From positions 27,918 to 91,917 of IMG/VR virus record IMGVR_UViG_3300033075_001896: DNA of 64,000 nucleotides; one strand, 5' to 3'. The first letter of the stretch is position 1; each line of letters begins with the position of its first letter. The translations under genes and the position numbers were made by a program. Origin of the DNA: a virus (Duplodnaviria > Caudoviricetes). This document shows, one piece after another, positions 13,521 through 63,000 of the stretch. Under the pieces are notes generated by a model. The model did no database searches and was not told where the DNA came from. It worked only from the letters and a program-made list of their open reading frames with translations.

Positions 13521-13696
13521 GGGCGCTCACCTCGGCGGAGGAAGGTCCCCTCGTTCGCCCGCAGCCGCGCGCAGGCGCACTGCGCCTCGGACGGGCACGT
13601 GCAGCGCGGGAGGAAGCCCGTCTGAAGGGGCTCCTCCCCGCGTCCGCGCAGCACCTCGGCCGGGGGCTTCGGAGGGGGTTGGCAGGGGTCACTCAT
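13517..13696 (-). CDS. 59-aa Cys-containing protein
   Basis: Read from sequence: MSDPCQPPPK...CTCPSEAQCAC...GERP; preceded by the TGAC motif; ATGA overlap with the endolysin. Confidence 0.5.
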   Translation of the reverse strand: MSDPCQPPPKPPAEVLRGRGEEPLQTGFLPRCTCPSEAQCACARLRANEGTFLRRGERP

Positions 13697-13711
13697 GCCC
13701 CTTGCCGCGCG

Positions 13712-14482
13712 TCAACGCGGCGGCGGGACGGTGGGCGCCGCGACGCGCACGGCGCGGACGGCGTGGAGTTCGCCCGTCCAGAAGACGTGCGTCGCGTAGG
13801 CGTAGGGGAGCCACGCGCGGCCCTGATCGCCCCAGGTGCTCCCCCACGAGTTCTGGATTCGAAAGGCCTTTCGCGCGTCGGAGTAGCCCACGAGGCAGAG
13901 GGCGTGTCCGCCCACGTAGACGCCCGAGGGGAGCGGGACCGTCGCGTCCTCCCCGAGACGTTCGAACGACTCGTAGATCCGCGCCCCCATCACGACGGGG
14001 TGGCCCGACGCGAGCTCCCACCGGAGCGTGTCGAGGTCCCAATCCAGGGGCTCCCAGGTGAGGAGCCGCGCGCGGCCGCGGTCGCGCTCGAGCTTCGTGG
14101 GCGGCGGGCCGCGGAAGTCGAGGCTGTGCTCCGCGAAGGGCCAGAGCGTGTCGGGGGCGAAGCCCGCCGTCTCGGCGTGCGTGAGCACGTCGGCGAGCAT
14201 CGCCCCGGCGTCGCGCTCGACCGTGCCCGCGCGCATCCGGCCGCCCCGGTAGAGGTCGAGCGGGGACGGGAACCACGACGCCGACCCTTGGAAGAGGAGC
14301 CGGAGGTAGAGGGCCAGCGCGGCCGCGTGGCCGGTGCAGCTCCCGAGCGGGCCCTGGTCGGTCGCCGGGTGCAGGTGCGCGAGCTCGACGTGGGGCGCGA
14401 GCGCGAGGAGATCGGACGCGGAGGCGCGCGTGCGCGTCCCGCGGTGCCCTTCGGGGGGCGGTGTCCAGCCGAAAGCCCTCAT
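13712..14482 (-). CDS. Papain-like C1 cysteine peptidase
   Basis: DQGPLGSCTGHA (catalytic Cys), GGHALCLVGY (His), QNSWG (Asn). Confidence 0.92.
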   Translation of the reverse strand: MRAFGWTPPPEGHRGTRTRASASDLLALAPHVELAHLHPATDQGPLGSCTGHAAALALYLRLLFQGSASWFPSPLDLYRGGRMRAGTVERDAGAMLADVLTHAETAGFAPDTLWPFAEHSLDFRGPPPTKLERDRGRARLLTWEPLDWDLDTLRWELASGHPVVMGARIYESFERLGEDATVPLPSGVYVGGHALCLVGYSDARKAFRIQNSWGSTWGDQGRAWLPYAYATHVFWTGELHAVRAVRVAAPTVPPPR

Positions 14483-14562
14483 GGCGTCCCGCGGACCTTC
14501 CAACGCACGACGGCGAAGGCGAGCATAAGCGCGCCGAGGAGGATGAAGCCGAGGAGCATCAT
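14479..14562 (-). CDS. 27-aa single-TM peptide
   Basis: MMLLGFILLGALMLAFAVVRWKVRGTP; ATGA overlaps on both sides. Confidence 0.55.
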   Translation of the reverse strand: MMLLGFILLGALMLAFAVVRWKVRGTP

Positions 14563-15146
14563 CGGACGCCACCGTCGGGCGGGTGAAGGTGGTCGAGGTC
14601 GCGGCGCAGGATCACGCCGCGGGACGCGGCGCGCAGCTCCAGCTCGCGCAGTTCCGCGTTGGTCGCGCGGCCTTCGGAGCGCCACCCGGCGTCCCCGTCG
14701 CACCCGGGCACGAGCGTATCGACCAGGGCGGCGACGGTGTCGGTCACGCGCTCGAGGACCCGACCGAGCGCCACCCCGTTGTCCGTGAGGGTCTGCGCGG
14801 CGACGACGAGCGCGGTGCGGACGCCCCCGACGGCCGCGTGCGCGGCGCATCGGTCGCCGCCCCGTTGCTCGTACGCATCGAGGGCGGTCTGGAGACCCTC
14901 GGCGGCCGTCGCGACGCCATCGAGGGCGCGGCCCACGACCGTCCGTGCAGGTTCGGGGAGGATCAGGTCGGTGATGGCGTGCGCGGCGGGCACGGCCCAC
15001 GTCAGGGTCGTGAGCACCGTGCGCGCGGTGTCCGTCCAGCTCGACGGCGTGACGGCGGGCGTGTCGGGCGAGGGTGGGGGGAGGGGGCGGCACGCGCCGA
15101 TGAGCGCGAGCACCAGGGCGAGGAGAAACAGTCGGAGGATCTTCAT
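14559..15146 (-). CDS. Lipoprotein in the lysis cassette (spanin-like?)
   Basis: Signal peptide and lipobox MKILRLFLLALVLALIGAC; helical body. Confidence 0.7.
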   Translation of the reverse strand: MKILRLFLLALVLALIGACRPLPPPSPDTPAVTPSSWTDTARTVLTTLTWAVPAAHAITDLILPEPARTVVGRALDGVATAAEGLQTALDAYEQRGGDRCAAHAAVGGVRTALVVAAQTLTDNGVALGRVLERVTDTVAALVDTLVPGCDGDAGWRSEGRATNAELRELELRAASRGVILRRDLDHLHPPDGGVR

Positions 15147-15833
15147 GCCCCTCCGCGGGGTGTCATCCCCGCGGCGCGTTAGCAGGCTTCGAGGTAGCCG
15201 CCGCGCAGGAAGCCGTGGTAGTCGCCCGCGAGGATCGACCCCCCGCCCGCGCCGCAGGTGTGCCCGTTCTTGTCGACGGTGATCGCGGGGACCGCGCCGT
15301 GCCGCACCCAACAGCGGTGCGCGTTGTCGTCGGGCATCGTGCAGTTCGCTGCGCGCGAGTCGATCGTCCAGTCGCGGCCGTTCGGCAGGCGCACCGTGAG
15401 GCAGTAGTCATCATCCCCGACGTGGAACGACCCCACGAGGCCGTGCAGCCACTCGGCGTCCCACATCGCGCCGATCGGCGCCTCCTTGAGCGTCGTCGGT
15501 TCGCCGCCGTCCGAGCGCGCGTAGAGCGCCTCCTCGCGCACCTGATAGGGGTCCGTCGGGGCGAAGGGCTGCTTGCACGCCTCGCAGTGCGTCGGGTAGC
15601 GCGGGTCGTCGTGGGGGTAGCGCTCGGCGTCGTCCGCGTCGCGCGGGGGGCGCCCGTTGAGCGCGACCGTCGCGACGCCCTTCGTCGTCGCGTCGCAGCC
15701 CCAGGCGCCCTTCACGGTGCAGGGGCGGGTGGAGGTCGGGGAGAAGCGCCGAAGGTCCACGCGGGCCTCGCCCGTCGGCGTGAGGAAGAAGCAGGGGACG
15801 CGTTCCATGCCCCTCCGCGGGGTGTCATCCCCG
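15144..15833. repeat. Exact 28-bp direct repeat (15144-15171 and 15806-15833)
   Basis: CATGCCCCTCCGCGGGGTGTCATCCCCG occurs twice. Confidence 0.95.
15179..15808 (-). CDS. Cys/His-rich protein, DUF6527-like C-terminus
   Basis: C-terminal ...GGSILAGDYHGFLRGG; several Cys. Confidence 0.6.
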   Translation of the reverse strand: MERVPCFFLTPTGEARVDLRRFSPTSTRPCTVKGAWGCDATTKGVATVALNGRPPRDADDAERYPHDDPRYPTHCEACKQPFAPTDPYQVREEALYARSDGGEPTTLKEAPIGAMWDAEWLHGLVGSFHVGDDDYCLTVRLPNGRDWTIDSRAANCTMPDDNAHRCWVRHGAVPAITVDKNGHTCGAGGGSILAGDYHGFLRGGYLEAC

Positions 15834-16607: not shown

Positions 16608-16682
16608 GGTCGCTCGTCGGTGATCCCGCAGCGCGGGAGGGACCGTCCCGCAGTGGGGCGGCGTTCACCGCTCGACACGACG

Positions 16683-16925: not shown

Positions 16926-16927
16926 GG

Positions 16928-18124: not shown

Positions 18125-18127
18125 CGG

Positions 18128-19990: not shown

Positions 19991-20049
19991 CGACCCTCGC
20001 GCGTGGTCACCCGTGGAGTTCGGCGACCCTCGGAGAACTTGTACCGCAG

Positions 20050-21201: not shown

Positions 21202-21203
21202 CC

Positions 21204-22247: not shown

Positions 22248-23701
22248 CAGGGCGTCTCCTGAATCACCGTCACGGCGGGCGTCGCGGCGAGCGCGGCGAA
22301 CTGCACGGCCGTGAAGGTCGGGTCGCTCGCGGGCGACGTGACCTCGACGCGCGTCACGCCCGCGAGGGACTGGCAGGCGTCGTACATCCTCGACCGCGGC
22401 ACCGGGTAGCCGAAGCGCAGCACGTAGAAGCCCTCCTCGTCGCGCGCCCCCGGCGTCCAGAGCGCGGCGAGGGCGGCCTGCGCGGCGGTCTGGAGGGCCG
22501 CGGCGTCCACGTCCGCGCGGCAGTAGACCGTCACGGCGATCGACTGCGCGACGTACACGGCGCTCACGACCGACACCTCAAGGCCCGCGGGGCAGGGCTT
22601 GGTCTCGGTGACGTACGTGTGCACCGCGTCGAGGAGCGTCGCGTCGGGCGATCCGCCCGCCGTCGGGACGACGTAGAGGCGGTGCTGGAGGTGGCCGAGG
22701 GTCGCGTCCTCGCGCCGCGTGTGGCAGAGCGCGCGGGCGACGCCCGGCACCTCGACCGCGTGGAGCTCGTAGTCCTCGCGGCTCACCGTCCGATCCGTGG
22801 CGCGGAGCGAGTCGGGCGCGGCGTACCGGGCGTGCTCCAGGCTCTCGCGGTCGGTGCCGCCCGCGGCGTCGCCGGGGTTCGTCACGGTGACCTCGACGGG
22901 CAGGCCCGCGGCGGTCGCGAACGAGCCCTGCACGCGCCGCAGCGTGCCGCGCCGCACGCGCCCGGCCGCGCCGAGCGTGGTCCGGTAGGTGACGGTGATC
23001 GTGGCGCCCTCGGCGGGGCGCTTGCCGTTCACCCCGTCGCCGAAGACGACCGTGGCGCGCTCGTCGGCGTCGCGCTCGACCACGTAGTGCTGCGACGCGG
23101 ACGTCGACGAGAGGAAGTTCGCGACGCGCGTCCACGTCACGCCGCCGACCCGCACCACCTCGCTCGCGCGCACGAAGGGCGTGGCCGAGAGGGTCACGCG
23201 CTGGCCCGTGGGCCACGCGCCCGCCGCGTCGCCGACGAAGCTCTGCGTCTGCGCGCGCCCCTCGGTGCAGGCCACCGTGCGCGACGTCTGCCCCGGCGCG
23301 AAGGTCACCGCGGCGTCGGTCGTGTAGACCACCGCGCCGTCTTCCGTGTAGACCTCGGTCCCCGCGGCGATCGGCACCGCGTCCGACTGCGACGGGATCG
23401 CGAGCGAGACGGTGACCGTCGGGGGCGTCGGCGACGCGAGCTCGTACGCGAGGCCCCGCGCGTGGTCGATCACGCTCTGGCGCAGGCGCGCGCGGTGGAT
23501 GAACGCCTCGTTGAGGCCGCGGTTCTGGTAGTACGTGAGCTTCGCGCCGACGGTCGCGACGGCCACGAACCAGCGCCGGTCGGGCGACCCTTCGGAGAGG
23601 TCGAGGCCCGCGAGCGAGGGCTCCCCCGCGGCGTTCGTCGTGAGCTCCGCGAGGATGCCCTCGAAGTCGAGCACGGTGTACTGAAGCGCACGAGGGGCCA
23701 T
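22247..23701 (-). CDS. Baseplate J-like wedge protein
   Basis: DFEGI, FGDGVNGKRP, GGTDRES, DRTVSREDYE; start MAPRALQY after the TGAC motif. Confidence 0.92.
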   Translation of the reverse strand: MAPRALQYTVLDFEGILAELTTNAAGEPSLAGLDLSEGSPDRRWFVAVATVGAKLTYYQNRGLNEAFIHRARLRQSVIDHARGLAYELASPTPPTVTVSLAIPSQSDAVPIAAGTEVYTEDGAVVYTTDAAVTFAPGQTSRTVACTEGRAQTQSFVGDAAGAWPTGQRVTLSATPFVRASEVVRVGGVTWTRVANFLSSTSASQHYVVERDADERATVVFGDGVNGKRPAEGATITVTYRTTLGAAGRVRRGTLRRVQGSFATAAGLPVEVTVTNPGDAAGGTDRESLEHARYAAPDSLRATDRTVSREDYELHAVEVPGVARALCHTRREDATLGHLQHRLYVVPTAGGSPDATLLDAVHTYVTETKPCPAGLEVSVVSAVYVAQSIAVTVYCRADVDAAALQTAAQAALAALWTPGARDEEGFYVLRFGYPVPRSRMYDACQSLAGVTRVEVTSPASDPTFTAVQFAALAATPAVTVIQETP

Positions 23702-23731
23702 CGCCCCTCGCGGGTGGTCACCCCGACGCGG

Positions 23732-23747
23732 TGGCACGCCGCGCGCA
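23732..23747 (+). promoter_or_regulatory. Putative sigma54 -24/-12 promoter
   Basis: TGGCACGCCGCGCGCA upstream of the ParB-like gene. Confidence 0.5.
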
Positions 23748-23800
23748 ACGCGGGGACGGGCGCGCGGCCGCACAGGGCGACCCGCGTTCAGGAGCACGCC

Positions 23801-24895
23801 ATGACACGACGCCAGAAGATCGAAGCGCCCGACGCGCAGCCGACCTCGCCCGCCACCCTCCCCGCGTCCGAGAAGGTGCGCGTCACGCCCGCCCTCGCCC
23901 GCGAGTGGCTGGAGAAGTACAACCGGCGCAACCGCCCGCTGCGCGAGGCGGTCGTGGATCGCTACGCCGAACAGATGAAAGAGGGCGAGTGGCAGGAGAC
24001 GGGGGACACCGTGAAGTTCGGGGCGGACGGTCTCCTCTACGACGGCCAGCACCGCCTCTCCGCGGTCGCGCGGTCGGGCCGCACCGTGGAGCTGTGGGTG
24101 GTGCGCGGCCTGCCGCCGGGCGCGCGCGAAGCGATCGACATGGGCGAGGCGCGGCGCGCGTTCGACAACCTCGCCATCTCCGACGGGTTGAGCCTCGCGG
24201 CGGAGGACCGGACGTGGCTCACGGCCATCGCGCGCCACGCCTACGGCGTGCACCACAAGCTCACGGTCTCCGTCGCGCGGGCGGTGCTCGCCGCGTACGG
24301 CCCCGGGCTCAAGGTCGCGCGCGAGGTGTTCAAGGGCCACCAGCGCGGGCTCTGCCGCGCCTCGTACGTCGGGGCGTTCATCTTCGCGTACCGCAAGGAG
24401 GGCGAGCGCGTGGCCGAACTCATGCGCCGGTTCCGCGACGGCGCGAACCTCGACGCGAAGGACCCGATCCTCTTGCTCCGCAACTCGATGATGACGACGT
24501 CGTCGGGCGGGTACGTCGTCGGCCACGCGGAGTTCGAGCGGACGTGCGCGGCCGTGGCCGCGGCGCTCGACGGCGAGAAGCGGGCGCGCCTCATCCGCAG
24601 CGCCGCGGCGCTCGAACGCTTCCGCGTGCCGAACGACACGTGCCTCGCCACGGCGAAGGAAGAGGCCGTGACCCTCGACGGGCTCATCAAGACCTACGGT
24701 GAGGTCTGCGTGCGCGCCGCGCTCGACGCGAAGGACGTGCTCACGGAGCGTCAGAAGGAGGTCCTGCGCGAGGTGCTCTCGGGCAAGGACACGTCCTCGA
24801 TCCGCGCGCAGGACGGCGTGACCCGCCAGGACATCTTCAAGGTCCGACGGGCGGCGCTCCGCAACCTGCACAAGCACCTGTCCGCGCAGGGGTAG
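23801..24895 (+). CDS. ParB-like N-terminal domain protein with C-terminal sigma70-r4/LuxR-type HTH
   Basis: VTPALAREWLE..NRPL, DGQHRL; LTERQKEVL...GVTRQDIFKVRRAALRNL; AGGAG SD. Confidence 0.75.
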   Translation: MTRRQKIEAPDAQPTSPATLPASEKVRVTPALAREWLEKYNRRNRPLREAVVDRYAEQMKEGEWQETGDTVKFGADGLLYDGQHRLSAVARSGRTVELWVVRGLPPGAREAIDMGEARRAFDNLAISDGLSLAAEDRTWLTAIARHAYGVHHKLTVSVARAVLAAYGPGLKVAREVFKGHQRGLCRASYVGAFIFAYRKEGERVAELMRRFRDGANLDAKDPILLLRNSMMTTSSGGYVVGHAEFERTCAAVAAALDGEKRARLIRSAAALERFRVPNDTCLATAKEEAVTLDGLIKTYGEVCVRAALDAKDVLTERQKEVLREVLSGKDTSSIRAQDGVTRQDIFKVRRAALRNLHKHLSAQG

Positions 24896-27093: not shown

Positions 27094-27142
27094 GCCCCTC
27101 CGCGCGGGGTCACCCGGGAGGGATGACTGCGCGGCGAAGGGC

Positions 27143-31557: not shown

Positions 31558-31597
31558 CACCCGTCGCGGGCGCGTCAACGCGGCGCGCGGTTGGCGC

Positions 31598-32646: not shown

Positions 32647-32688
32647 GGGCGGATCGTACGCGCCGAAACCGTGACAGGATACGACCAA

Positions 32689-32714
32689 AAAAGCAACGTT
32701 TGAGCGTTGCTTTT
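32689..32714. promoter_or_regulatory. Operator-like perfect inverted repeat in a divergent promoter region
   Basis: AAAAGCAACG-N6-CGTTGCTTTT. Confidence 0.7.
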
Positions 32715-34233: not shown

Positions 34234-35184
34234 CTACCACGCGAGCCCGCTCCCGAGGAAGCTCGTGAGCCGCTGCGCGTCGGCCATCACGGCCGTGAGC
34301 TCCGCCTCGCGCTGCGCGAGCACGTTCCGCAGGGTGGGCTTCTCCGCCCACGCGCGCTCCAGGTCGAGGACCGTCTCACGGAGGAGATCGACCTCCACCG
34401 CGCGCAGCGCCCCTTCGCCCACCGGCAGGGCCGCGAGCCCGAGGAGGCGGTTGCGCACGGCGTCGAGGACCCCGCCCGCGCTGTTGCCGAGCGTGAGCGC
34501 GCTGCGGATCTCGGGCACGGCGCGCTTCAGGTGCACGAACGGGAGCACGAGGAGACTCTCGTCCTGGGAGCCCGTGCCGCCCTCGGCGGTGAAGTCGAGG
34601 TCGTCGTAGACCTCGCTGTAGGACCCGAGGCGCAGGATCACCTTGCGGTGCGTGGCGTCGCCGTCACTCGCGGCGGCGACCTCGACGCTCACGCGCCCGC
34701 CCGCGATGCCGAGCTCGCGCGCTTCGATGCGCGCGACGGGCGCCCCGCCGCCGTCGAGGATCGTGTCCCAGGCCCGCGCGGGCGAAGGGTCCGTGAAGGG
34801 GTCGGGGAAGGGCACGGTGTGCTCGCCGAGGACGATGGGCCCGCGGGTCGTCTCGGCGATGCGCGGCGTGAGGGTCGTGCCGTAGCTCGACTGGTAGGCC
34901 ACCTGCGCGGCTTCGAGGTAGCGGCAGAGGTTGGTGGCGCGCGTCCAGACCGGGCCCATCGCCGTCGTCCACGTGGTGAGCGCGGCGCTGTAGGTCGCGT
35001 CGTCGGCGTCGACCGTGGTGCGCAGGCGGGCGTTGTCGGCGTCGTAGGCCGCGCCCGTGGCGTTCAGGCGCGCGAGGAGCCCCTGCCCGTAGAGCTTCGC
35101 GGGCGCGTCGGCCGCGAGCGAGACGTGCGCGAGGGCCGTCCCGAGCGCGTCGCGCGTCGTCGTCCAGGTGATGACCGAGGGCAT
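34234..35184 (-). CDS. Putative virion protein downstream of the tape measure
   Basis: Starts 2 nt after the TMP stop; contains a sheath-like beta segment. Confidence 0.6.
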   Translation of the reverse strand: MPSVITWTTTRDALGTALAHVSLAADAPAKLYGQGLLARLNATGAAYDADNARLRTTVDADDATYSAALTTWTTAMGPVWTRATNLCRYLEAAQVAYQSSYGTTLTPRIAETTRGPIVLGEHTVPFPDPFTDPSPARAWDTILDGGGAPVARIEARELGIAGGRVSVEVAAASDGDATHRKVILRLGSYSEVYDDLDFTAEGGTGSQDESLLVLPFVHLKRAVPEIRSALTLGNSAGGVLDAVRNRLLGLAALPVGEGALRAVEVDLLRETVLDLERAWAEKPTLRNVLAQREAELTAVMADAQRLTSFLGSGLAW

Positions 35185-35186
35185 CG

Positions 35187-37847: not shown

Positions 37848-37871
37848 GGCGCCCTTCCCGCGGTGTCACCG

Positions 37872-38938: not shown

Positions 38939-38976
38939 ACGCCTCCGCGCGGCGTCAACGTGGCGCCGCGTTGGCG

Positions 38977-39447: not shown

Positions 39448-39497
39448 GGTGCGACTCCTCACCTGTAGGAGCGCGCGTCACCCGCGGGGGCGGGGGA

Positions 39498-41684: not shown

Positions 41685-41722
41685 GGGGGGCTTTCCTCCG
41701 CCCCTCGCCCGCGCGTCACCCG

Positions 41723-42331: not shown

Positions 42332-42493
42332 GCCCCTCGCCCGCGCGTCTACCCCGTCAGGGGCGGAGGATCGCGTCGGAGGGCGCGTACCAGTCCCACC
42401 GGAGGCGCGCGGCGTCGTCGCGCCACTGCCGCAGGGCGGAGCCCGCGGCGGCGAGCGCGAGCCAGAGCGCCGCGACGCACACGAGGAGGCGGG

Positions 42494-43129
42494 TCAACGG
42501 CGGGTGATCTCCAGCAGCTCGCGCAGGGTCACGTCGGAGAAGCCCGCCTTGCGGCACGCCTCGGCGAAGCGCGCGAGGGCGCGGACCTCCATTTCCGCCA
42601 CGCCCTGGTGCGTGACGTTGAAGAGGTCCGCGATCGTGTAGTGGTCGAGCCCGCCCGGGTGCGCCTCGACCACGCGCAGCGTGCAGGTGTGCGGCGCCGC
42701 CTGGGGCTCCTCACTCGGGCGGTTGAGCGTGATCCCGCCCGAGGGCGTCACGTCGATCGCGAGGTGGTAGCGGCACGCGACGTACGCGCACGGCGACGCG
42801 GCCGTCCCGAGGCCGCGCGCCTGACACTCGCCCCAGGTCCTCGGGCGCGGCGGGAGCGTGCGGTCGCGGAGCGGGTAGCGCTTCTGCCCCGCTTCGAGCG
42901 CCTTCTTGCTCGTCCGCTGGAGCTGGAGGGTGAGCTTCGCGTCGTCGCGGGTGGCGCGTCGCGCGCGCCGCCGCTTGAGGTGGTCGCGCGTCCCCGACAG
43001 AAACTCCTCCCAGAACGGCGCGATCGGCGCGGCCTCGTGGACGACCGGGAGGCGTCGGCGCGCGGGAGGGGCGGGGTCGGTCGTGGGCGGCGCGTCGTCG
43101 CGCGGGGCGTCGAAGTCGAGTCGGTCCAT
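42494..43129 (-). CDS. Zn-binding plus sigma70 region-4-like HTH protein
   Basis: RPRTWGEC...PCAYVACRYHL...TCTL; GGLDHYTIADLFNVTHQGVAEMEVRALARF. Confidence 0.7.
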   Translation of the reverse strand: MDRLDFDAPRDDAPPTTDPAPPARRRLPVVHEAAPIAPFWEEFLSGTRDHLKRRRARRATRDDAKLTLQLQRTSKKALEAGQKRYPLRDRTLPPRPRTWGECQARGLGTAASPCAYVACRYHLAIDVTPSGGITLNRPSEEPQAAPHTCTLRVVEAHPGGLDHYTIADLFNVTHQGVAEMEVRALARFAEACRKAGFSDVTLRELLEITRR

Positions 43130-43143
43130 GGCGCGGGGAGAGA

Positions 43144-43158
43144 GCAACGTGCGCGCCA
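43144..43158 (-). promoter_or_regulatory. Putative sigma54 -24/-12 promoter
   Basis: TGGCGCGCACGTTGC(T), near consensus, 14 nt before ATG. Confidence 0.7.
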
Positions 43159-45006: not shown

Positions 45007-45022
45007 GCCTCTTCAGGACGGG

Positions 45023-45529
45023 TCACCCGCCCGCGGGCGGGTCGTTGGGGCGGCGCGCGGTCGGGCGCGTGGGACGGCCGCGCTCCTCGGGCGTGGCGGG
45101 GACGACCGCCGGGGCGCTCGTCGGGGCGGGCGCCACGGGCTCGTCGGCCGTCACGAGGTCCGTCGTGGTCTCGGCCGCGGCCTCGGCGAGCCACGCGTCG
45201 GGCGTGTGTTCGAGGAGGTCCGCGTCGTCCTCGGGGGCGGCGGCGGTCTCGACCTTCGGCGCGGGCCAGGGCGTGCGCGAGATCGCGAAGCGCGGCACCG
45301 AACCGCGGCCCTCGCCCTCGTGGTTGTACTTCGGCACGCGCTCCTCGTGGAGCTTGAGCCTGCGCACGAAGTCGGCGGGGATCGGGTGCGGGCAGACGGG
45401 CGCGGACTCGGTGAAATGCACCGTACCGACGTCGGGGACGCCGTGGAGCACGTACGTCTCGCCTGCGGCGAGCTTGAGGTAGACGTGGCCGGGCTTGGGG
45501 GTGGAAGCTGGAGCGGTGGGGTTTGCCAT
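45023..45529 (-). CDS. Hypothetical head-associated protein
   Basis: Follows the capsid gene; AAAGGA SD; low-complexity C-terminus. Confidence 0.55.
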   Translation of the reverse strand: MANPTAPASTPKPGHVYLKLAAGETYVLHGVPDVGTVHFTESAPVCPHPIPADFVRRLKLHEERVPKYNHEGEGRGSVPRFAISRTPWPAPKVETAAAPEDDADLLEHTPDAWLAEAAAETTTDLVTADEPVAPAPTSAPAVVPATPEERGRPTRPTARRPNDPPAGG

Positions 45530-45591
45530 CGGGTGCGGAGGTCCTTTCGACACTTCCGCGGTCGGTCAACCCGGCGGCAGGATGGGCGGGA

Positions 45592-46606: not shown

Positions 46607-48277
46607 TCACTCCTCGCCGTCGTCGTCACCCTGCGCGTCCACCGCGGGCTTCGTCCCGGCGCGTCCGACGAAGCGCCGGAGGCCGAGGACGCCCTGGAGC
46701 GGGCTCGCGGGGGCGCGCGTCGCGGCCGCTTCGGGCGGGGGGTCGCCGGCGCGGGGCGCGGGCCGTGCGGCTTCGAGCGCGCCGACGCGCTTCTCGGCCG
46801 TCTCGGCGCGCGTGCGCAGGGCCGTCTCGGTCGTGCGCGCGGCCGTGAGCTCGGTCTCGCGGGTGGCGAGGGCGGCGCGGGCCGTGTCGAGCGCGGCGCG
46901 GAGCTCGGCGAGCTCGCGGGCGCTCTTGGTCTCGCTCTCCGTCTCGCTCTCCTCGGTCTCCTCCCCGAGGAGCCCGTCGAGGTGGCCGCCGCAGTCGCTC
47001 GCGCACTGCCTGGCCTTCTCCAGCACCTCGCGCGTGGCCTTCGAGAGCTTCTTCCCGGCGCGCTGGTGGGCCTCGGCGACGTCGCCTTCGGTCGAGGCGG
47101 CGCGCGTCGAGACGCCCATCGCGGCGTCGGCCTCGTCGCAGACGCCCTGGACGACGGCGCCGAAGTCCACGCCGAGCGCGCGGAACTTCCGCACCATCTC
47201 TTCGTCGGTGGGGGAGCCGTAGTACGCGCACTCGTAGAACACCGACTCCGCCGCCATGAGGGCGCGGCTCATCGCGTCGCGCACCTTCCAGCGGTTCGCG
47301 CACGCGCCCCACACGGAGGCGAGGCTCGACCAGTCGGTGGTCGCGCGGCTCTCCACCTGCCGCACGAACGCCTCGACCTCTTCGCGGCCGAGGTCCTGCG
47401 CGCTGCGGAAGCCCCCGAGGAGGGCGGCGAAGTTCGCGCGGAGGGCCAGGGCCGTGACCGGCGTGGGGGGCTCCGCAGACGGGGCCGCGGCGGGCGTCTC
47501 GCGGGCCTCGGTCGTGGGGGCGAGGGGCGGGGCCGCGGCGGGCTCCGAGGGGGTCTGCGCGGCGGCCTGGGTGTCAGTCTTGATGGTCATATCGTCACAC
47601 CTCCAGAGCGGGGTCACCCCGCCCGAGTCGTCGCGTGCGCTCCGCGCCTCGACGCCCTCGAAGAGAATCCCGATCGCCGGGGCCTTCACGAGCGAGAGCG
47701 TGAGCGGGTAGGGGTCGAGAATCTCGCCCGTGCGGACCCTGCCGACGCCCGTAACGACGAGCGTCTTCTCGCGGTACTTCCCGGTGAACTCAATGCTGAA
47801 GCCCTTGAGCTTGCCGTCGCGGAGCTCCTGGCGCGTCGTCTCCTTGAGGACCTTCACCGTGACGACCCAGACGAGCGCCGGGTACTGCGCCGAGTCCTCG
47901 CGCGTGATCCAGCTCTCGACGATCGCGCCGACCGTGCCGTGGTCGTGGTGCGAGTCGATGCCCCCGGTCCCGCGTTCGAGAAACTTGTACGCGAAGGCCC
48001 GGAGCGTCTCGGGGCTCATCCACGTGCGGTAGGAGTCGATGCGGAAGGCGTCCTCGCCCGGGACCTCGCCCGACTCGGGCACGTCGAGCGCGGGGTACGC
48101 GATCCCTTCGACGAGCGTGTAGTCCGTCTCCTCGCGTACCGCGCGGATCGCGAAGTCGACGCGGCGACGCGCCGCGACCTCCGTGGGCGCGTCGAGCGAC
48201 GCATCCAGGGACCGTTGCAGGACGGCGCCGAGGGAGGCAGGCCAGAGCGCGACGAGGGAGAGGGCGGAGAGGCTCAC
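46607..48277 (-). CDS. Prohead protease (XkdF-like) with C-terminal scaffold
   Basis: IDSHHDH, IVESWI, DGKLKGFSIE, SLVKAPA; coiled-coil C-terminus. Confidence 0.85.
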   Translation of the reverse strand: MSLSALSLVALWPASLGAVLQRSLDASLDAPTEVAARRRVDFAIRAVREETDYTLVEGIAYPALDVPESGEVPGEDAFRIDSYRTWMSPETLRAFAYKFLERGTGGIDSHHDHGTVGAIVESWITREDSAQYPALVWVVTVKVLKETTRQELRDGKLKGFSIEFTGKYREKTLVVTGVGRVRTGEILDPYPLTLSLVKAPAIGILFEGVEARSARDDSGGVTPLWRCDDMTIKTDTQAAAQTPSEPAAAPPLAPTTEARETPAAAPSAEPPTPVTALALRANFAALLGGFRSAQDLGREEVEAFVRQVESRATTDWSSLASVWGACANRWKVRDAMSRALMAAESVFYECAYYGSPTDEEMVRKFRALGVDFGAVVQGVCDEADAAMGVSTRAASTEGDVAEAHQRAGKKLSKATREVLEKARQCASDCGGHLDGLLGEETEESETESETKSARELAELRAALDTARAALATRETELTAARTTETALRTRAETAEKRVGALEAARPAPRAGDPPPEAAATRAPASPLQGVLGLRRFVGRAGTKPAVDAQGDDDGEE

Positions 48278-49941
48278 GCCCCTGCGTCGGTGTCACCCGC
48301 GGCGGGGGCTTCGGCGGCGGGGGCTTCGGCGCCGTCGCCTCCACCGCCCTCCGTGGGCGTCGTCGCGCCGTCGCCCGTGTCCGCGCTCGACCCCCCGACC
48401 TTCGTCACCGCGCCGAGGGCCTTCGTCACGTCCGCGGGCAGGAGGAGGTTCTTCGCGAGCGCGTCGAGGAGCGCCGCGGGGATCTTGCGCCAGCTCTCGG
48501 GCGACGAGAGCTCGACGCCGAGGAGCGGCTCCAGAAGGTCGGCGACGTTCGCGACGGTGAGGACGCCCGCCTTGATCCCGACCTCGATGACCTTCAGGAG
48601 CTGCTCCTCCGAGAGGAGCGGCGGCCCCTTCGTGATCACGCGGCAGTGCCGCGCGCCGAGCTCGGGGAGGACGAAGCTGTTCAGGAGCTCGTCCTCGTCC
48701 GCGCGCTCCGGCGCGAACACCTGCTCCTCGGCCACCTGCCGCGCGGCCTGCGCGGTCGCGAAGTTGTACTCCTCGCTGCGGCCCATGAAGATCGGGGGCA
48801 GGCGGAACGCCATCGCCACGTCTTCGACGCAGCGGGTGCGGTATTCGAGGAACTGCGCGTCGGTCTGCGCGGCCTTGGTGAGGTCCTTGAAGTCGATGCG
48901 CGGCACGGCGCCCGGCCGCGCGATCGCCATGGGGTCGGCGGGGTCGGAGGTGGCGTCGGACTTCGCTTCGAGGATCAACGGGACGTGGCGGTTCGCGCGC
49001 CCCTTCACGGTCCCGAAGTGCTCCTTGAGCCGCTCGATCACGTCGTCGTCGAAGCTCGCGCCCTGCACCAAGATCGCCATCGGGGGGATGGCGTTGTTGT
49101 CGAAGATATCGACGTTGACCTCGCCCGCGGCGGCGCGACCGGCCGCGGAGGACGCCGCGCCACGCCAGCAGGGCTTTCCGTACACGCTCCCCGGCTCGTA
49201 GCGGCAGAGGTTGAGCACCTCGGACGCGAGGTCCTGGGGCGCGGCGTTCGGGTCCTCATCGCCCGTGTCGGCGCGCAACGGCCGCGGGTCGCCGAGCTCC
49301 TTGAACCAGACCATCCGGCCGTTCACGTACTGTGCGTACCGGCGGAAGCGCCGGTACTGCGTGACCTTCGTGAAGGCGCCGTCGGGCGCGCGCACCCACC
49401 GCGCGGTCTCGACGATCGCGCGGTCCCACCGGGTCTTGCGCATCGTGTAGGTCGGGCAGTGGTCGAGCCCCACGAGGCGCCCCTTCGCGTCGCGCAAGAC
49501 CTCGTAGTAGCCGTCGCCGAAGACGGCCAGGTCCTTGCGCACGCGCTTGCGCGCGGCGGTGAAGCTCCCGACCGAGGAGGCGGCGTCGAACCACGTCTTG
49601 AGCCGCTCCCGCTCCCCCTGGATCGCGTCGTTGAGGGCGGGGGGCGGCGCGGCGAGCACGGGCACGAACTGCACGCCGAACGAGCACGTGTTGACGACCA
49701 TCGCGTCGACGGCCGACTGGAGCACGTCCGAGTCGTCGTAGCGGCGCTGCACGTAGCTGTAGGGGTAGGGCGGCTCGATGAGCCCGTGAAGGCCGTATTG
49801 GTCGGCGAAGGGGTCGAGCTGCTTCGACGCGCCCGCCTTGGCCGCCTCGGGCGTGACGCCGGTCTCCAGCGGCAGGATGCGGACCTTGACGGTGGCGGTG
49901 GGCTTCGTGCGCTTCTTCGGGCGTCGGGAGGGCGTCGTCAC
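48274..49941 (-). CDS. Portal protein (PBSX-like)
   Basis: LIEPPY, GDGYYEVLRD, WFKELGDPR, FDNNAIP, DAQFLEY, AFRLPPIFMGRSEEYNFATA. Confidence 0.93.
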   Translation of the reverse strand: MTTPSRRPKKRTKPTATVKVRILPLETGVTPEAAKAGASKQLDPFADQYGLHGLIEPPYPYSYVQRRYDDSDVLQSAVDAMVVNTCSFGVQFVPVLAAPPPALNDAIQGERERLKTWFDAASSVGSFTAARKRVRKDLAVFGDGYYEVLRDAKGRLVGLDHCPTYTMRKTRWDRAIVETARWVRAPDGAFTKVTQYRRFRRYAQYVNGRMVWFKELGDPRPLRADTGDEDPNAAPQDLASEVLNLCRYEPGSVYGKPCWRGAASSAAGRAAAGEVNVDIFDNNAIPPMAILVQGASFDDDVIERLKEHFGTVKGRANRHVPLILEAKSDATSDPADPMAIARPGAVPRIDFKDLTKAAQTDAQFLEYRTRCVEDVAMAFRLPPIFMGRSEEYNFATAQAARQVAEEQVFAPERADEDELLNSFVLPELGARHCRVITKGPPLLSEEQLLKVIEVGIKAGVLTVANVADLLEPLLGVELSSPESWRKIPAALLDALAKNLLLPADVTKALGAVTKVGGSSADTGDGATTPTEGGGGDGAEAPAAEAPAAGDTDAGA

Positions 49942-49963
49942 GCCCCTTCGGGCGAGTCACCCG

Positions 49964-50434: not shown

Positions 50435-50497
50435 GGTGGGGGTGTTCCTTTCGGACCTTCGGCCCGGTCACCCCCGCAACCGGCCGGGCCCCGAACC

Positions 50498-54770: not shown

Positions 54771-54802
54771 GGGCGGTGTCCTTTGTCCTTTCTGGGGAAG
54801 TC

Positions 54803-55453: not shown

Positions 55454-56156
55454 GGGTCTCTCCCTCGGTGTCTTCATCGGTGGGGGCGTGCAGGGCGAGG
55501 ACCTCGGCGCCGTCGACGAAGTCGCGGACGAAGGCCGCGCAGAGGGCGGCCACGAGGAGGTCGTCGTCGCCGTCGAACTCCAGCGGCGTGACGGTCGTGA
55601 GGACGCCGCGGAGCATCACGGTGCAGCCGTGCGGGGAGGTCACGGTGTCGATCCAGGCCCACACGTCGCCGAGCTCGGTCTCGATGCGCCACGGGCGCGG
55701 AACGGCGCGGTGGATCGCGCTCACGCGCCCTTCTCGACGGGCGTCAGGCTCACGAGGAGGTAGCGCCACACCGAACAGTGCGTGCCCGCGTAGCGGCGGT
55801 TGAGGACGACGTCCACCGCGACGCGCGCGCCCTTTCGCCCGCGCGGGGGGGTGAGCCGTCGCATGACGCTTCCGCGCTTCGAGAACGGACGCGCGGACGT
55901 GCTCCGCCGAGGGTGGCGTGTCGGTGCGGCCGACAAGCCAGTCGAGGCTACAGCCCAACGTCTCCGCCCACGCCACCGCGACGGCGAGCGAGGGGTTTGG
56001 CCTCGCCCCAGACACGAGACCCGCCGCGAGCGAAGCGGCGTTCCCTGCGAGGCGATCGAGCTCCCGCAGGGACAGGTCCTCCGCGAGAACAACGGCTTCT
56101 GCGAGACGCTCTCGGAGCAACACGGCGAACGTGGGGTGAGCTTTCTCGTCGTTCAT
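55443..56156 (-). CDS. XRE-family HTH protein (3' part may be separate small genes)
   Basis: LSLRELDRLAG...NPSLAVAVAWAETLGCSLDWLVG. Confidence 0.65.
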   Translation of the reverse strand: MNDEKAHPTFAVLLRERLAEAVVLAEDLSLRELDRLAGNAASLAAGLVSGARPNPSLAVAVAWAETLGCSLDWLVGRTDTPPSAEHVRASVLEARKRHATAHPPARAKGRARRGGRRPQPPLRGHALFGVALPPREPDARREGRVSAIHRAVPRPWRIETELGDVWAWIDTVTSPHGCTVMLRGVLTTVTPLEFDGDDDLLVAALCAAFVRDFVDGAEVLALHAPTDEDTEGETHER

Positions 56157-56914: not shown

Positions 56915-56915
56915 C

Positions 56916-56983: not shown

Positions 56984-56984
56984 A

Positions 56985-59482: not shown

Positions 59483-59871
59483 GTCCCTTCCGGCGCGTCA
59501 ACGCGGCACCGGATTGACGGGGTTCAGGGGTCGCGCCGGAGGTCTTCCGCGGCGGCGATCCAGGCGTCCTGTGCGGCGAAGGGGAGGGCGGACCAGGGAA
59601 GGGGGGCGGGGGACTCGGCGCCGTAGGTGCGGGTGAGGGCGCGGCTGTAGGCTTCGAAGGCGCGACGGGCGCGGCGTTCGAGGCGGGCGCGCGCGCAGCG
59701 AAGGGCCGACTCGCGGTCGAGGTGCTGGCAGGCGCAGATCGCCCAACGGTTGCCGTCACGGTCGACGAGGTCGGCACCCCACGCGGCGCGACCGAGCTCC
59801 ACCGGGACGGGCGTGAGGGAGGGGTCGGGCTGGACGATCGGGGGCGACGGGAGCACGGCGCCGAGCGGGGG

Positions 59872-60225
59872 TCAGGGGACGGCCGGGAAGAGCATCATGC
59901 GGAGGGCGAAGGAACTCGCCGCGCGCACCGAGGGCCACCCGCAGTAGGCGCCCGCGTAGGTCGGGGTCGCGAGGCGGGGCGTGGGGTTGAGCGGGGTGTT
60001 CGCCGGGATGCGCACGCCCTTGTCGCCCGTGGCCGGGGACGGCTTGAACGTGAGCTCGTACGCCGCCGAGGCGCCCTCGATGAGGAGGGCGTAGCTCATG
60101 CCCTGGAACTCCGCGGGGGGCGTGATCGTCGTCCACGTGGTCGGGTCGGCGTCGGTCGTGACCTCGACGACGAGCGGGTAGGGGGGCGCCTGAGCTTCGC
60201 GGGCGTTGTCCTCGTAGTTCGGCAT
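59872..60225 (-). CDS. Small beta-rich protein, probable virion component
   Basis: Preceded by the TGAC motif. Confidence 0.5.
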   Translation of the reverse strand: MPNYEDNAREAQAPPYPLVVEVTTDADPTTWTTITPPAEFQGMSYALLIEGASAAYELTFKPSPATGDKGVRIPANTPLNPTPRLATPTYAGAYCGWPSVRAASSFALRMMLFPAVP

Positions 60226-60338
60226 GGCGCCCCTTCGAGGGGGTCACCCGCGGCGAGTACTTTCGAAGGCGATGGCGCCGGAGGGTCGATCGTGTGTAGC
60301 GTGGGCGTCGGCCTGGGAGAGGACCCGGGCCGAAGGAG

Positions 60339-61031: not shown

Positions 61032-61484
61032 TCAGGCGTCGAGACCCCAGAGGCGCCGGAGCTGCGTCTCGGTCTCCACCGCGTCCACGACGAGGTACTT
61101 GCGCGGGTTGGCGCGCTCGACCACGACCATCCACCCGGAACCCTGCGCCCGCATCGCCGCGCGACCCGCGTCGGCGGCCTCGTCGCGCGTCGCCGCGTCG
61201 CCGTGGTCGCGCTCGATGACCCATCGATAGGGGAGCGCCGCGGGGTCGGTCGCCGCGCGCAGTTCCCCGGGCCTGTAGTAGTTCACGCACCCGAGGCCGC
61301 GCACGCCTACGCTGCCATAGGTCGAGACGGACACGACCTCCGACACGCGGAAGTCGACGTTGAGCCACGGCTGGAGGAGATGGGGCCCGAGATAGCGAGG
61401 CTCGACGCGAGACCCGATCAAGAACAGGTACGGGGCCGTCGCGCAGCGGGTCGTCTTCGAGCGAGTCGTCTGGCAGGTCGTCAT
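61032..61484 (-). CDS. Hypothetical protein
   Basis: AAAGGA SD. Confidence 0.5.
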   Translation of the reverse strand: MTTCQTTRSKTTRCATAPYLFLIGSRVEPRYLGPHLLQPWLNVDFRVSEVVSVSTYGSVGVRGLGCVNYYRPGELRAATDPAALPYRWVIERDHGDAATRDEAADAGRAAMRAQGSGWMVVVERANPRKYLVVDAVETETQLRRLWGLDA

Positions 61485-61500
61485 CGGCGTGTCCTTTCAA

Positions 61501-61948
61501 GGGCACGAGGGGAGCGCCCGAAGGCGCCCCCGTGCCCCGGTGTGGGTTCAGTGGCGTGTGGTCGCGCGGTCCTTGAAGAGAAGGTCGCCCGCGTCCGCCG
61601 CGGTCATGCCGAAGTCCACCATGCGGGCGACCGTGAGCATCCGCGCGGCGTCAAAGCAGTCCTCGAACTCCGAGGCGTGCTTCTTCCACGAGTTCACCGC
61701 GTGGTTCTGGTGGCGCATGGTGCGCATGTGCGCGGCCCACCCTTCGAGGCGCCAACGCTCCTCGGGGCCGTGCGCGGCGACCGCGATGGAGAGCACGGTG
61801 TCCATCGTGGGGGTCGTGGACGAGGGAACGGGCGCGGGGGTCGTGGTGTTCTTCGTGGTGGTCTTCATGGTTCGTTCTCCGTGGTGGGTTGAAAGAGGCC
61901 CCGGAGGGGCGCCCGAAGGCGCCCCCCATCGGCCCGTGTGGGTTCAGT
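61501..61948 (-). repeat. Two copies of a stop-ACCCACAC-hairpin(cUUCGg) module (61501-61552; 61898-61948)
   Basis: Shared GCGCCCGAAGGCGCCCCC and GTGTGGGTTCAGT. Confidence 0.8.
61548..61868 (-). CDS. Hypothetical early protein
   Basis: GGAG SD; lies between the repeat modules. Confidence 0.6.
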   Translation of the reverse strand: MKTTTKNTTTPAPVPSSTTPTMDTVLSIAVAAHGPEERWRLEGWAAHMRTMRHQNHAVNSWKKHASEFEDCFDAARMLTVARMVDFGMTAADAGDLLFKDRATTRH

Positions 61949-62282
61949 CGTCGTACCCGACGCCCGGGTAATCGTCGTACCCGGTGTCATAGCCGTCGTC
62001 GTCGGAAGCCCCCGTGTAGGGGTTATAGCCCTCGTCGCTGTCGATGTCGTAAGGCTCCTCGTCGTAGTCCGCGTCACAGGGGTTGTCGTCATCGAGCCCC
62101 ATCGGCGTATCCGCCTCCATCGCCGCCTCGCGCGCCTCGTCCACCGAGACCTCTTCGGAGAGCACGAGGCCGAGGCCGCAGCCCGCGCAGGTGCCCGTGC
62201 CCTCGCCGGGGGCGAACTCGTGGTCGGTCCCGCAGATGCAGGTGAGCGTGATCGGAGCGATGAGGTTGGTGTTGGTGGTCAT
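61944..62282 (-). CDS. Zn-ribbon protein with highly acidic, Tyr-rich tail
   Basis: CICG...CAGC; DDDNPCDADYDEEPYDIDSDEGY... Confidence 0.65.
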   Translation of the reverse strand: MTTNTNLIAPITLTCICGTDHEFAPGEGTGTCAGCGLGLVLSEEVSVDEAREAAMEADTPMGLDDDNPCDADYDEEPYDIDSDEGYNPYTGASDDDGYDTGYDDYPGVGYDD

Positions 62283-62325
62283 CTCGGTTTCCCTTGCCCT
62301 TTCTGTCTATAAAGTACGTAACGAA

Positions 62326-62339
62326 GTAACTATAGTTAC
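62326..62339. promoter_or_regulatory. Perfect 14-bp palindrome in an AT-rich divergent control region (operator)
   Basis: GTAACTATAGTTAC. Confidence 0.75.
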
Positions 62340-62368
62340 ACGTAAGACGACACGAAAGGACGGGAGTC

Positions 62369-62722
62369 ATGCCGATTGAGACGCTCTCCGCCGACACCGC
62401 CGAGGTGCGGCTCCTCCAGGCCGCGCCGCAGATGCCCGAGGCCCTGCGGCGCGCGGTCGTGCGCGCCCTCTACCGCCGCGCGTACGCCTTCCTCGACACC
62501 GAGACGGGGGAGGTCACGGTCTCGCCCGCGGGCCACCGCGCCGCCTCGAACGCGCTCGCGGGCGAGGGCTTCACGAAGCGCACGCGCGGGGGCGTCGCGT
62601 ACGTGTGGACGCCCCCGAAGCCCACCCTCGAAGAGCTCCAGGCCGCCGACGCGAAGCGCGCCGAGCTCCAGGCGTGGCTCCGCGACTATCTCGCCCGCGC
62701 GGGGCAGGACGTGCCACGATGA
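62369..62722 (+). CDS. Hypothetical protein
   Basis: AAAGGA/GGGAG SD. Confidence 0.55.
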   Translation: MPIETLSADTAEVRLLQAAPQMPEALRRAVVRALYRRAYAFLDTETGEVTVSPAGHRAASNALAGEGFTKRTRGGVAYVWTPPKPTLEELQAADAKRAELQAWLRDYLARAGQDVPR

Positions 62723-63000
62723 GGCGCATGACGACCTCGAAGAAGGCCCCCGACGTGGCGGAGCGGCTCAAGGCGGCGCGCGCGGGGCGCGGGCTCACCG
62801 TCGCCGAGCTCGTGCGACGCGCGCGGGTCGAGGGCGAACCGATCTCCCGGCAGGCCGTGATGAAGATCGAGAGCCGCGCCGTGACGAACCCCGGCATCCT
62901 CACGGTCGCGGGCCTCGCCGAAGCGCTCGACGTGCCCGTGGCGTGGCTCGCGTACGGCGGCGGCCCCACCCCCGCGGGGTTGACCGCCGCGAAGGCGTGA
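62719..63000 (+). CDS. XRE-family HTH repressor
   Basis: RLKAARAGRGLTVAELVRR...ISRQAVMKIE...NP...LAEALDVPVAWL. Confidence 0.85.
   Translation: MRRMTTSKKAPDVAERLKAARAGRGLTVAELVRRARVEGEPISRQAVMKIESRAVTNPGILTVAGLAEALDVPVAWLAYGGGPTPAGLTAAKA

Follow-up and report, generated by a model that had tools for sequence, protein, structure and literature searches.

How does a phage with a genome of 72% GC set the 5' ends of its late transcripts? We asked this of IMGVR_UViG_3300033075_001896 (G000 below), a single IMG/VR virus contig (Duplodnaviria; Caudoviricetes) of 91,917 bp with a CheckV completeness of 78%. The window that we analyzed is its last 64,000 nucleotides (nt), positions 27,918-91,917 of the contig, and coordinates below are those of the window unless the contig or another genome is named. 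A first-pass annotation of the window had pointed to a two-part motif, GGTGAC-N7-9-(A/G)AGG, ahead of about 20 late genes and a tRNA gene, and had read it as a promoter for gene-by-gene leaderless transcription. We find a motif of this kind that is enriched, restricted to the late region, constant in its geometry and conserved in related phages. We consider it likely that the signal acts at the level of transcription, and we favor, with moderate confidence, a promoter from which RNA would start about 15 nt after TGAC.

Pooled sites gave the consensus G-N-TGAC, 7-9 nt, R-A-G, 3 nt, C, purine. Relative to the predicted transcription start (+1), the first G lies at -21 and TGAC at -19 to -16; after a spacer of 7-9 nt of free sequence, R-A-G occupies -7 to -5, C is at -1 and the purine is at +1. 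A start codon, a Shine-Dalgarno (SD) sequence or the 5' end of a tRNA begins 14-15 nt (range 13-17) after TGAC. The 3' edge of the motif always adjoins one of these three, while the distance from its 5' edge to the upstream stop codon varies.

The composite motif was 4-8 times enriched over dinucleotide-preserving shuffles. GGTGAC-N7-9-RAGG had 10 matches against 1.05 ± 0.97 expected, a count that 0 of 100 shuffles reached. In the late 49.5 kb, G[GTA]TGAC-N7-9-[AG]AG matched 24 times against 6.5 ± 2.8 (shuffle maximum 13), and a stricter pattern that adds N3-[CGT]-purine matched 17 times against 2.2 ± 1.5 (shuffle maximum 7). On this count the first-pass proposal held up against GC- and dinucleotide-matched backgrounds. 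The early 41.5 kb contained only 4-6 matches, which is background level. Density was 3-4 sites per 10 kb in six lineages of the family, and 0-1 per 10 kb in the early half of G000, in Kofleriaceae-like chromosomal loci, in relatives with ~35% portal identity and in one unrelated phage.

Could such a pattern arise by chance in a genome of this composition, from TGA stops with SD-like purine runs behind them? The TGA of TGAC does double as the stop codon of the upstream gene at 13714 and 15827 (and at one site in the relative L002), and the hexamer G[GTA]TGAC by itself is not enriched (82 matches against 75). However, the composite is enriched to a level that no shuffle reaches, orthologous sites are conserved across six lineages, and the motif is absent from GC-matched host-like DNA. 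The simpler idea that TGAC is just the upstream stop codon was rejected as well, since at most sites the stop is a separate codon. We regard a compositional artefact as refuted by the shuffle and comparative tests and give it a negligible probability.

The window holds 23 copies. Sixteen have an ATG or GTG 13-17 nt past TGAC, four (sheath, tube and the genes at 45529 and 50434) precede a leader with an SD at its start, and the remaining three lie ~57 nt before the capsid gene (46628), inside the protease/scaffold gene (47616) and before a tRNA-Met gene. At each of the 15 coordinates given by the first-pass annotation, the motif could be read back on the coding strand with the gap recorded there, and the four leadered sites were as it had described them. 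The plus-strand copy was also found in place, with TGAC at 62981, 16 nt ahead of the tRNA-Met. Copies at 31560 (gap 13 or 16 nt), 46628 and 47616 are additions to that list. The sites are as follows, where the gap is the distance from TGAC to the start codon.

13697-13716, minus strand: motif, gap 14 nt; TGAC at 13714-13711, the upstream gene stops at its TGA; predicted +1 at the ATG at 13696, which opens a 59-amino-acid (aa) open reading frame (ORF) coupled to a 341-aa gene
15147-15167, minus strand: motif, leaderless class, gap 15 nt; predicted +1 at the ATG at 15146
15809-15829, minus strand: motif, leaderless class, gap 15 nt; predicted +1 at the ATG at 15808; the upstream gene stops at this TGA
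19991-20011, minus strand: motif, leaderless class, gap 15 nt; predicted +1 at the ATG at 19990 of a 620-aa fiber-like gene
23702-23722, minus strand: motif, gap 15 nt; predicted +1 at the ATG at 23701 of a baseplate J-like gene
27094-27114, minus strand: motif, gap 15 nt; predicted +1 at the GTG at 27093; half of a back-to-back divergent pair
27122-27142, plus strand: motif, gap 15 nt; predicted +1 at the GTG at 27143 of a 474-aa gene; other half of the pair
31561-31579, minus strand: motif, GTTGAC-N13-GTG with the GTG at 31560, or an ATG 3 nt further on; weak second block CGACGG
37848-37870, minus strand: motif before the tape measure gene, gap 17 nt; GTG at 37847
38939-38959, minus strand: motif, leaderless class, gap 15 nt; predicted +1 at the ATG at 38938
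39463-39482, minus strand: motif before the tube gene; predicted +1 at the G at 39462; 15-nt leader with GAGGAG; ATG at 39447
41700-41720, minus strand: motif before the sheath gene; predicted +1 at the G at 41699, the first base of GGAGGAAAG; ATG at 41684
42332-42352, minus strand: motif, AGAC variant, gap 15 nt; predicted +1 at the GTG at 42331
45007-45027, minus strand: motif, gap 15 nt; predicted +1 at the GTG at 45006 of a 215-aa gene
45549-45570, minus strand: motif, leadered class; predicted +1 at the G at 45548, the first base of GAAAGGA; ATG at 45529
46609-46630, minus strand: motif within the final codons of the protease/scaffold gene; predicted +1 at ~46608; ~57-nt leader; capsid ATG at 46551
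47597-47618, minus strand: motif inside the protease/scaffold gene (46607-48277); predicted +1 at ~47596, followed by an in-frame ATG at 47590
48278-48297, minus strand: motif before the XkdF-type protease/scaffold gene, gap 14 nt; predicted +1 at the GTG at 48277
49942-49961, minus strand: motif before the portal gene, gap 14 nt; predicted +1 at the GTG at 49941; kept in 6 of 6 lineages
50453-50472, minus strand: motif, leadered class; predicted +1 at the G at 50452, the first base of GAAAGGAAC; ATG at 50434
59483-59502, minus strand: motif, gap 14 nt; predicted +1 at the GTG at 59482 of a 240-aa gene upstream of the large terminase gene
60226-60248, minus strand: motif, gap 17 nt; ATG at 60225
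62979-63000, plus strand: motif before tRNA-Met; predicted +1 at 62999/63000, 1-2 nt ahead of the tRNA 5' end

A copy thus precedes about 22 late genes, where the first-pass annotation had counted about 20. Its "gene-by-gene" was an overstatement, since many late genes lack the motif and instead show ordinary SDs and translational coupling to the preceding gene. We note one motif-like sequence outside the window, GGTGAC-N8-AAG-GAC-C at contig position 25889, 46 nt before the primase gene of an early/middle operon; either it is a chance match or the signal is not strictly late.

The motif was also found in related phages. Five further lineages have it before the same late genes (the orthologous genes that we footprinted were those for portal, protease, the 215-aa neck protein and sheath), with both blocks and their spacing kept and with spacer and flanking sequences diverged.

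Lineage G001/L001: 92-95% identical to G000; motif present
Lineage L002/L003/L088/L090: portal identity 55%; motif present
Lineage L089: portal identity 48%; motif present
Lineage L004-L007: portal identity 46-47%; motif present
Lineage G005 (= L210): portal identity 43%; about 25 clean motif copies

For example, the ortholog of the 215-aa neck gene (45006) has the motif in L001, L004 and L006. The first block is mostly GTTGAC in the relatives, and the second takes the forms GAGGCGC, GAGGTGC, GAGACCC, GAGTCGC and GAGCGTC; the G-run AGGGG is peculiar to G000. Hence the two-part signal of the first-pass annotation stands, while AGGGG as its second block has to be replaced by the core conserved across relatives, R-A-G-N3-C (GAG-N3-C). 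An exact-pattern scan of IMG/VR returned 103 single-match loci, almost all of them chance, and one true new family member (L210, i.e., G005). The contigs are 61-78% complete. Copies of the GTTGAC type in G005 have an additional upstream box, GTGCGCACGG, at about -30 to -21 relative to the predicted +1 (G005 positions 2300, 11272, 11673, 16948, 22092, 25908, 29251 and 44935), and copies of the GGGTGAC type, which include all leadered copies of that genome, have no such box; G005 may have two promoter subclasses.

We then weighed whether the motif is read in DNA or in RNA. Its position invites an RNA-level explanation, in which a start-associated signal on a polycistronic late mRNA, like the SAS/ESAS (start-associated) repeats of Cluster K phages, recruits ribosomes or a phage factor to starts without a well-spaced SD, or positions them there. 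In most copies 0-3 nt separate the end of the motif from an ATG or GTG, and the second block of G000 can pair with the anti-SD at -5 to -10 kcal/mol. SAS repeats are similar in placement and orientation (PMC3203893). Against a translation signal stand copies with the same geometry ahead of two different tRNA genes. The one in the window is

63001-63076, plus strand: tRNA-Met (CAT), behind the motif; three G-C pairs in the anticodon stem; C1-G72 paired

and no ORF begins at the copy before it (62979-63000, plus strand). The first-pass annotation had argued from this tRNA, and the argument has become stronger: in G005, an independent lineage, the end of the motif coincides with base 1 of a tRNA-Met (34662-34735 of that genome, minus strand) whose sequence differs from that of G000. 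This base lies exactly 14 nt after TGAC, the place held by the A or G of the start codons at other sites.

Several other observations also speak against ribosome positioning. Upstream of the capsid gene the motif lies 65-85 nt before the start in G000, L002 and G005, overlapping the end of the preceding ORF. In leadered genes the second block is followed directly by a canonical SD (GAGGAG, GAAGGAG or GAAAGGA), and hence is not itself the SD. In keeping with the first-pass remark that the G-rich block is too near the start for an SD, the median distance from the end of the best anti-SD match to the start is 2 nt for motif genes and 7 nt for 79 other G000 genes. The second block of relatives is often not SD-like at all (GAGACCC, GAGTCGC, GAGCGTC), and we rejected GGTGA as an extended anti-SD match, as the GTTGAC of most relatives is unable to pair with the 16S tail. 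Back-to-back divergent pairs occur in two lineages (27112-/27124+ in G000, with 49 nt between the two start codons, and 11673-/11727+ in G005, with a similar gap), where a translation signal would leave each mRNA in need of a promoter inside the opposite gene. Copies also head genes that follow gaps or strand switches: the gene at 60225 leads the long minus-strand late block past a 434-nt gene-free gap, that at 19990 is the first after a 1.2-kb stretch without a confident gene, and that at 23701 is the first minus-strand gene past a plus-strand island. Finally, in G000 and G005 a copy within the protease/scaffold ORF precedes a nested in-frame start. In G000 this is the ATG at 47590 (codon 230), which has its own SD and a 327-aa product; the counterpart in G005 is at codon 202. 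The nested start likely serves separate expression of the scaffold part of the XkdF-protease/scaffold gene. Because of the tRNAs, the capsid copies, the leadered SDs, the divergent pairs and the nested copies, we read the motif as a DNA signal that defines RNA 5' ends, and we consider a translation signal quite unlikely.

An RNA 5' end can also be made by cutting. A sequence-specific endoribonuclease that cleaves ~15 nt after UGAC would yield both leaderless mRNAs and the mature 5' end of the tRNA, and it would produce the same geometry as a promoter, tRNA cases included. We looked for structure in the sites by folding them together with chimeras, in which the left half of one site was joined to the right half of another. 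A hairpin between TGAC and the start was rejected, as native sites folded at -4.41 kcal/mol against -4.22 ± 0.31 for the chimeras (p = 0.27) and -4.09 for mononucleotide shuffles; because chimeras and shuffles fold about equally well, composition alone explains the folding of the sites. The element is G/C-rich and unstructured, unlike known determinants of RNase E, RNase III or RNase P, and we identified no candidate nuclease. Moreover, the divergent pairs and the copies before first genes would still require promoters, and none is visible: a consensus scan of the window from 12 to 32 kb found 0 promoters of the sigma-70 type, so this region has no other repeated promoter candidate. We regard RNA processing as very unlikely.

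The last rival accepts a DNA site but not a promoter. The copies could be operator or roadblock sites comparable to the stoperators of Cluster A phages, at which a two-headed phage protein silences or times late expression that is driven from true promoters elsewhere. The sites suit this idea in being asymmetric, in one direction relative to transcription, about 20 in number and placed in short intergenic gaps, and the two blocks, whose spacing varies by +/-1, suit a two-domain protein such as the Cys/His and helix-turn-helix (HTH) protein described below. The phage is temperate and encodes a serine integrase, and the stoperator concept itself is established (PMC3203893). Against it stand the edges of the motif, fixed on the side of the start, SD or tRNA and variable on the side of the upstream stop, and its absence from the early region. 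At divergent pairs and first genes there is no upstream transcription to block, and the 12-32 kb part of the window offers no other promoter candidate. The gene for the sigma-4-like protein is in the replication operon and not by the CI-like repressor. On balance we find operators unlikely.

Our favored reading, then, is a phage-specific late promoter, or a DNA signal fixing late RNA 5' ends, within ~21 bp upstream of the start. After the early/middle phase, a phage factor would send host RNA polymerase to ~22 sites in the late half of the genome; the Cys/His and sigma-region-4.2-like protein of the phage is one candidate for this role. Where +1 coincides with the first base of an ATG or GTG, the mRNA would be leaderless, as predicted for portal, protease, tape measure, baseplate, fiber and lysis genes, whose products are mostly low-copy. 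For the high-output products (sheath, tube, 45529, 50434 and capsid), +1 would instead open a short leader that begins with or contains an SD. One copy would drive the phage tRNA-Met, whose transcript would have hardly any 5' leader. The C at -1 and the purine at +1 match what bacterial RNA polymerase usually prefers at a start site. Starts in the leaderless class are ATG or GTG, save for one ambiguous site in L006/L007 (TTG, or an ATG 3 nt downstream), and an ATG/GTG rule for leaderless initiation was shown in mycobacteria (PMC4633059).

Would the host translate such mRNAs? At 32647-32700 (minus strand) we observed TACGAT-CCGCCC-ATG, a TANNNT box 6 nt before an ATG in a host-type promoter arrangement, and at contig positions 17286-17340, outside the window, TACAAA-GGTCGC-ATG with TTGACG 18 nt upstream; both read as ordinary leaderless genes. 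Because host-type TANNNT-N6-ATG arrangements occur elsewhere in the phage, the sequence suggests that the host translates leaderless mRNAs. The tRNA-Met of G000 is close to an initiator tRNA, with three G-C pairs at the foot of the anticodon stem, save for its paired C1-G72; that of G005 has an A1.G72 mismatch and just two anticodon-stem G-C pairs. A late-expressed initiator-like tRNA could favor leaderless translation. ARAGORN also reported a 67-nt tRNA-Tyr at 55911-55977 (minus strand), which has a poor D arm and no motif copy before it and may be spurious.

The geometry of the motif fits neither sigma-70 nor sigma-54 promoters, as the first-pass annotation had stated: there is no TANNNT, and the blocks are just 7-9 nt apart. 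At the positions of a sigma-70 -10 element (-12 to -7) the aligned sites are G/C (e.g., GCGCGG) and the logo has no A/T signal; as for a -35 element, (G/T)TGAC lies at -20 to -16, 7-9 bp from the second block. Taking TTGAC as a normal -35 with a start within the ORF also failed, as there is no conserved -10 element 17 bp downstream and the leadered SDs would be lost. For sigma-54, the distance from the GG of GGTGAC to the terminal GC is ~18 nt, not 11, and the start or SD comes directly after the GC. Separate sigma-54-like sites exist elsewhere in the window (e.g., at 43158).

We compared the motif with known phage systems. Like the late promoters of T4, it occurs as dozens of short class-specific elements among contractile-tail structural genes, with no -35 element at the normal place. 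However, the T4 element, TATAAATA, which gp55 recognizes together with gp33 and the gp45 clamp, consists of one A/T-rich -10 box at -13 to -6, whereas the motif is bipartite, G/C-rich and without such a box; T4 late mRNAs are leadered, whereas those from the motif are predicted to be mostly leaderless. Neither a gp55-like protein nor one with sigma region 2 (Sigma70_r2) turned up in G000, G001 or G005. The Lpa-dependent late promoters of P1, a comparison system also for GTCGTGAC-type motifs, have an upstream box at ~-22 that replaces the -35 element and require a phage activator, together with a standard -10 hexamer, an inverted repeat in the upstream box and leadered transcripts. The motif shares with them a box closer than -35, and has none of the -10 hexamer, inverted repeat or leaders. 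T7-like promoters are likewise ~20-bp elements that end at +1, with a purine at +1, many copies of the same geometry and no -35/-10, but their sequence is dissimilar and G000 is temperate.

The closest system in function is that of the late promoters of Thermus phages YS40 and Lalka27a. Those of phiYS40 were reportedly described by Sevostyanova et al. in 2007. In both phages a late promoter precedes most late genes or small groups and terminators are few; most transcripts are leaderless and open with the A or G of the start codon, divergent pairs share a short intergenic region, and the class-specific consensus implies a phage factor that retargets host RNA polymerase (bioRxiv 10.64898/2026.04.20.719267). 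The likeness to G000 lies in the start codon at +1 and the many late promoters (both predicted in G000) and in the divergent pairs. The difference lies in sequence: Thermus promoters keep a TANNNT -10 element (TAGGGT) six bases before +1 and a C at -25, whereas the motif has no TANNNT and conserves TGAC at -19 to -16 and GAG at -7 to -5 in a wholly G/C-rich setting. Closest in appearance are the Cluster K SAS/ESAS repeats, which are asymmetric, in one orientation, present in 11-19 copies a few bases before starts and conserved across subclusters (PMC3203893). Both SAS and the motif are short, asymmetric, in one orientation and confined to one genome half; however, SAS is 13 bp long, has an AGGAG core that lies 3-7 bp ahead of the start and belongs to the non-structural arm, whereas the motif is in the structural, late arm and also precedes tRNAs, long leaders and real SDs. 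Cluster A stoperators are similarly oriented and intergenic, but they are immunity-repressor sites that occur in both arms and block elongation, while the motif is late only. We conclude that this is probably a new late-promoter architecture with leaderless output.

Which protein might read the motif? G000 encodes two paralogues with four conserved Cys/His residues and a C-terminal HTH like sigma region 4.2, with the pattern RPxTRxEC...RPCPFVxCKHHL. The first, of 189 aa, is encoded outside the window (contig 23270-23839, 4.1-4.6 kb before the window start) in the replication operon. Its helix reads TLDEVGARMGMTRERTRQLE, with a canonical TRERTRQ, and residues 117-162 align with region 4.2 of RpoS, RpoD and SigA (TRERxRQ); the PF04545 match is 33 bits. 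A structural model (predicted local distance difference test score 71) gave weak fold matches to sigma region 4 alone and none for the Cys/His module. With a detectable region 4.2 and no region 2, the protein is best classed as sigma-4-like and DNA-binding and not as a sigma factor. The second paralogue is in the window.

42494-43129, minus strand: 211-aa Cys/His and sigma-region-4-like paralogue among the neck genes; recognition helix diverged

L002 and L178 have one copy at the neck-gene place, with a canonical helix. In solved complexes (1KU7; Campbell et al. in 2002), the region 4.2 helix is said to contact the TTGACA -35 element. It is possible, though we hold it doubtful, that the family reads the (G/T)TGAC block; we put it forward as a candidate only. 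Equally tentative is a fuller version, in which the small Cys/His and sigma-4.2-like HTH protein would read TGAC and GAG together in place of the -35/-10 recognition of the host sigma, an undescribed promoter architecture. The fully G/C-rich 21-bp element would then start transcripts at ~15 late start codons and at the first tRNA base, and the outcome would be a late regulon of leaderless mRNAs with a leaderless tRNA-Met that perhaps favors their translation.

Homologues of the family are common on Kofleriaceae and other Myxococcota chromosomes, in a conserved neighborhood (sigma-54 activator, YacG). A general link between protein and motif across phages was rejected: the phage L182 has the protein and no motif, and the chromosomal homologues L180 and L183 lie in host loci with 1 and 0 motif matches. 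A weak Sigma70_r4 match in G005 proved to be a Fis-type HTH. A PF00940 (T7-like polymerase) search of the incomplete G000, G001 and G005 gave no match, and control genomes were likewise silent. Upstream of the 211-aa gene, a near-consensus sigma-54-type TGGCGCG-CACG-TTGC at 43143-43158 (minus strand) ends 14 nt before the ATG at 43129, and weaker TGG[CT]-N8-TGC matches lie at 11725 (plus strand) and 4919 (plus strand). This suggests a cascade from a sigma-54 promoter through the regulator to the late motif.

We note several points that weigh against a promoter or against this reader. The motif offers no TANNNT or A/T-rich segment to melt, positions -15 to -1 being filled by G/C, and to our knowledge none of the known sigma classes uses its geometry. 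The intergenic gaps are minimal, and a protein-binding site that filled such a gap would likewise adjoin the next start or SD. With its AGGGG, the second block of G000 does resemble an SD at a poor distance. We detected no phage RNA polymerase or complete sigma factor in contigs that are 61-78% complete. The sigma-4-like protein is absent from the available parts of G005, L004 and L006, and L182 has it without the motif.

G000 itself is a contractile-tailed phage by its virion genes, which include sheath, a T4 gp19-like tube, a PBSX-type portal, an XkdF-type protease/scaffold, an HK97-type capsid, tape measure, baseplate J and a T4-type terminase N domain. Its other genes include a large serine recombinase, DnaB, primase, a C5 methylase, NUDIX and a deazaguanine cluster of the DpdA/PAPS-reductase-like kind. 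Near and distant DNA searches of INPHARED phages found no close relative, and the sole matches were distant sheath proteins at 23-29% identity. The nearest cellular relatives of the portal with similar GC are in Kofleriaceae and other Myxococcota, and so are the homologues of one regulator; because of these two lines, the host is probably a Kofleriaceae-like myxobacterium. The stretch or a ~95% relative occurs in 20 sequencing runs, mostly of wastewater and sludge and some labelled RNA; these exist as contigs, breaks between contigs are assembly joints, and no stretch lacked cover in a meaningful way.

Three further regions deserve mention. At contig positions 9990-14197, outside the window, a DpdA-like transglycosylase gene lies between genes of the PAPS-reductase family. 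This cluster points to 7-deazaguanine modification, so the phage DNA probably carries 7-deazaguanine, and a modified G could bear on how a G/C-rich promoter is read. Between the genes 61944-62282 (minus strand) and 62369-62722 (plus strand), the divergent region at 62283-62368 is A/T-rich, contains the palindrome GTAACTATAGTTAC and looks like an early promoter/operator region. Near-identical G/C hairpins, GGGGGCGCC-TTCG-GGCGCCCC, lie at ~61485-61535 and 61869-61925 (minus strand), just upstream of the genes at 61484 and 61868, one of them followed by a T-rich run; they are terminator-like and belong to the early/lysogeny corner.

If the sites are promoters, host RNA polymerase can go to a compact G/C-rich element without a -10-like A/T box. 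Leaderless mRNAs for low-copy and SD-led mRNAs for abundant virion proteins would then be a simple way of setting stoichiometry at the level of the transcript, within a dense set of late promoters, and the primary transcript of the tRNA may need little or no trimming by RNase P. In practice, the motif flags true start codons and late genes in genomes of 70% GC and above, in which gene calling is hard. It does so for a phage group that is common in wastewater and activated-sludge data and whose probable host group has almost no studied phages.

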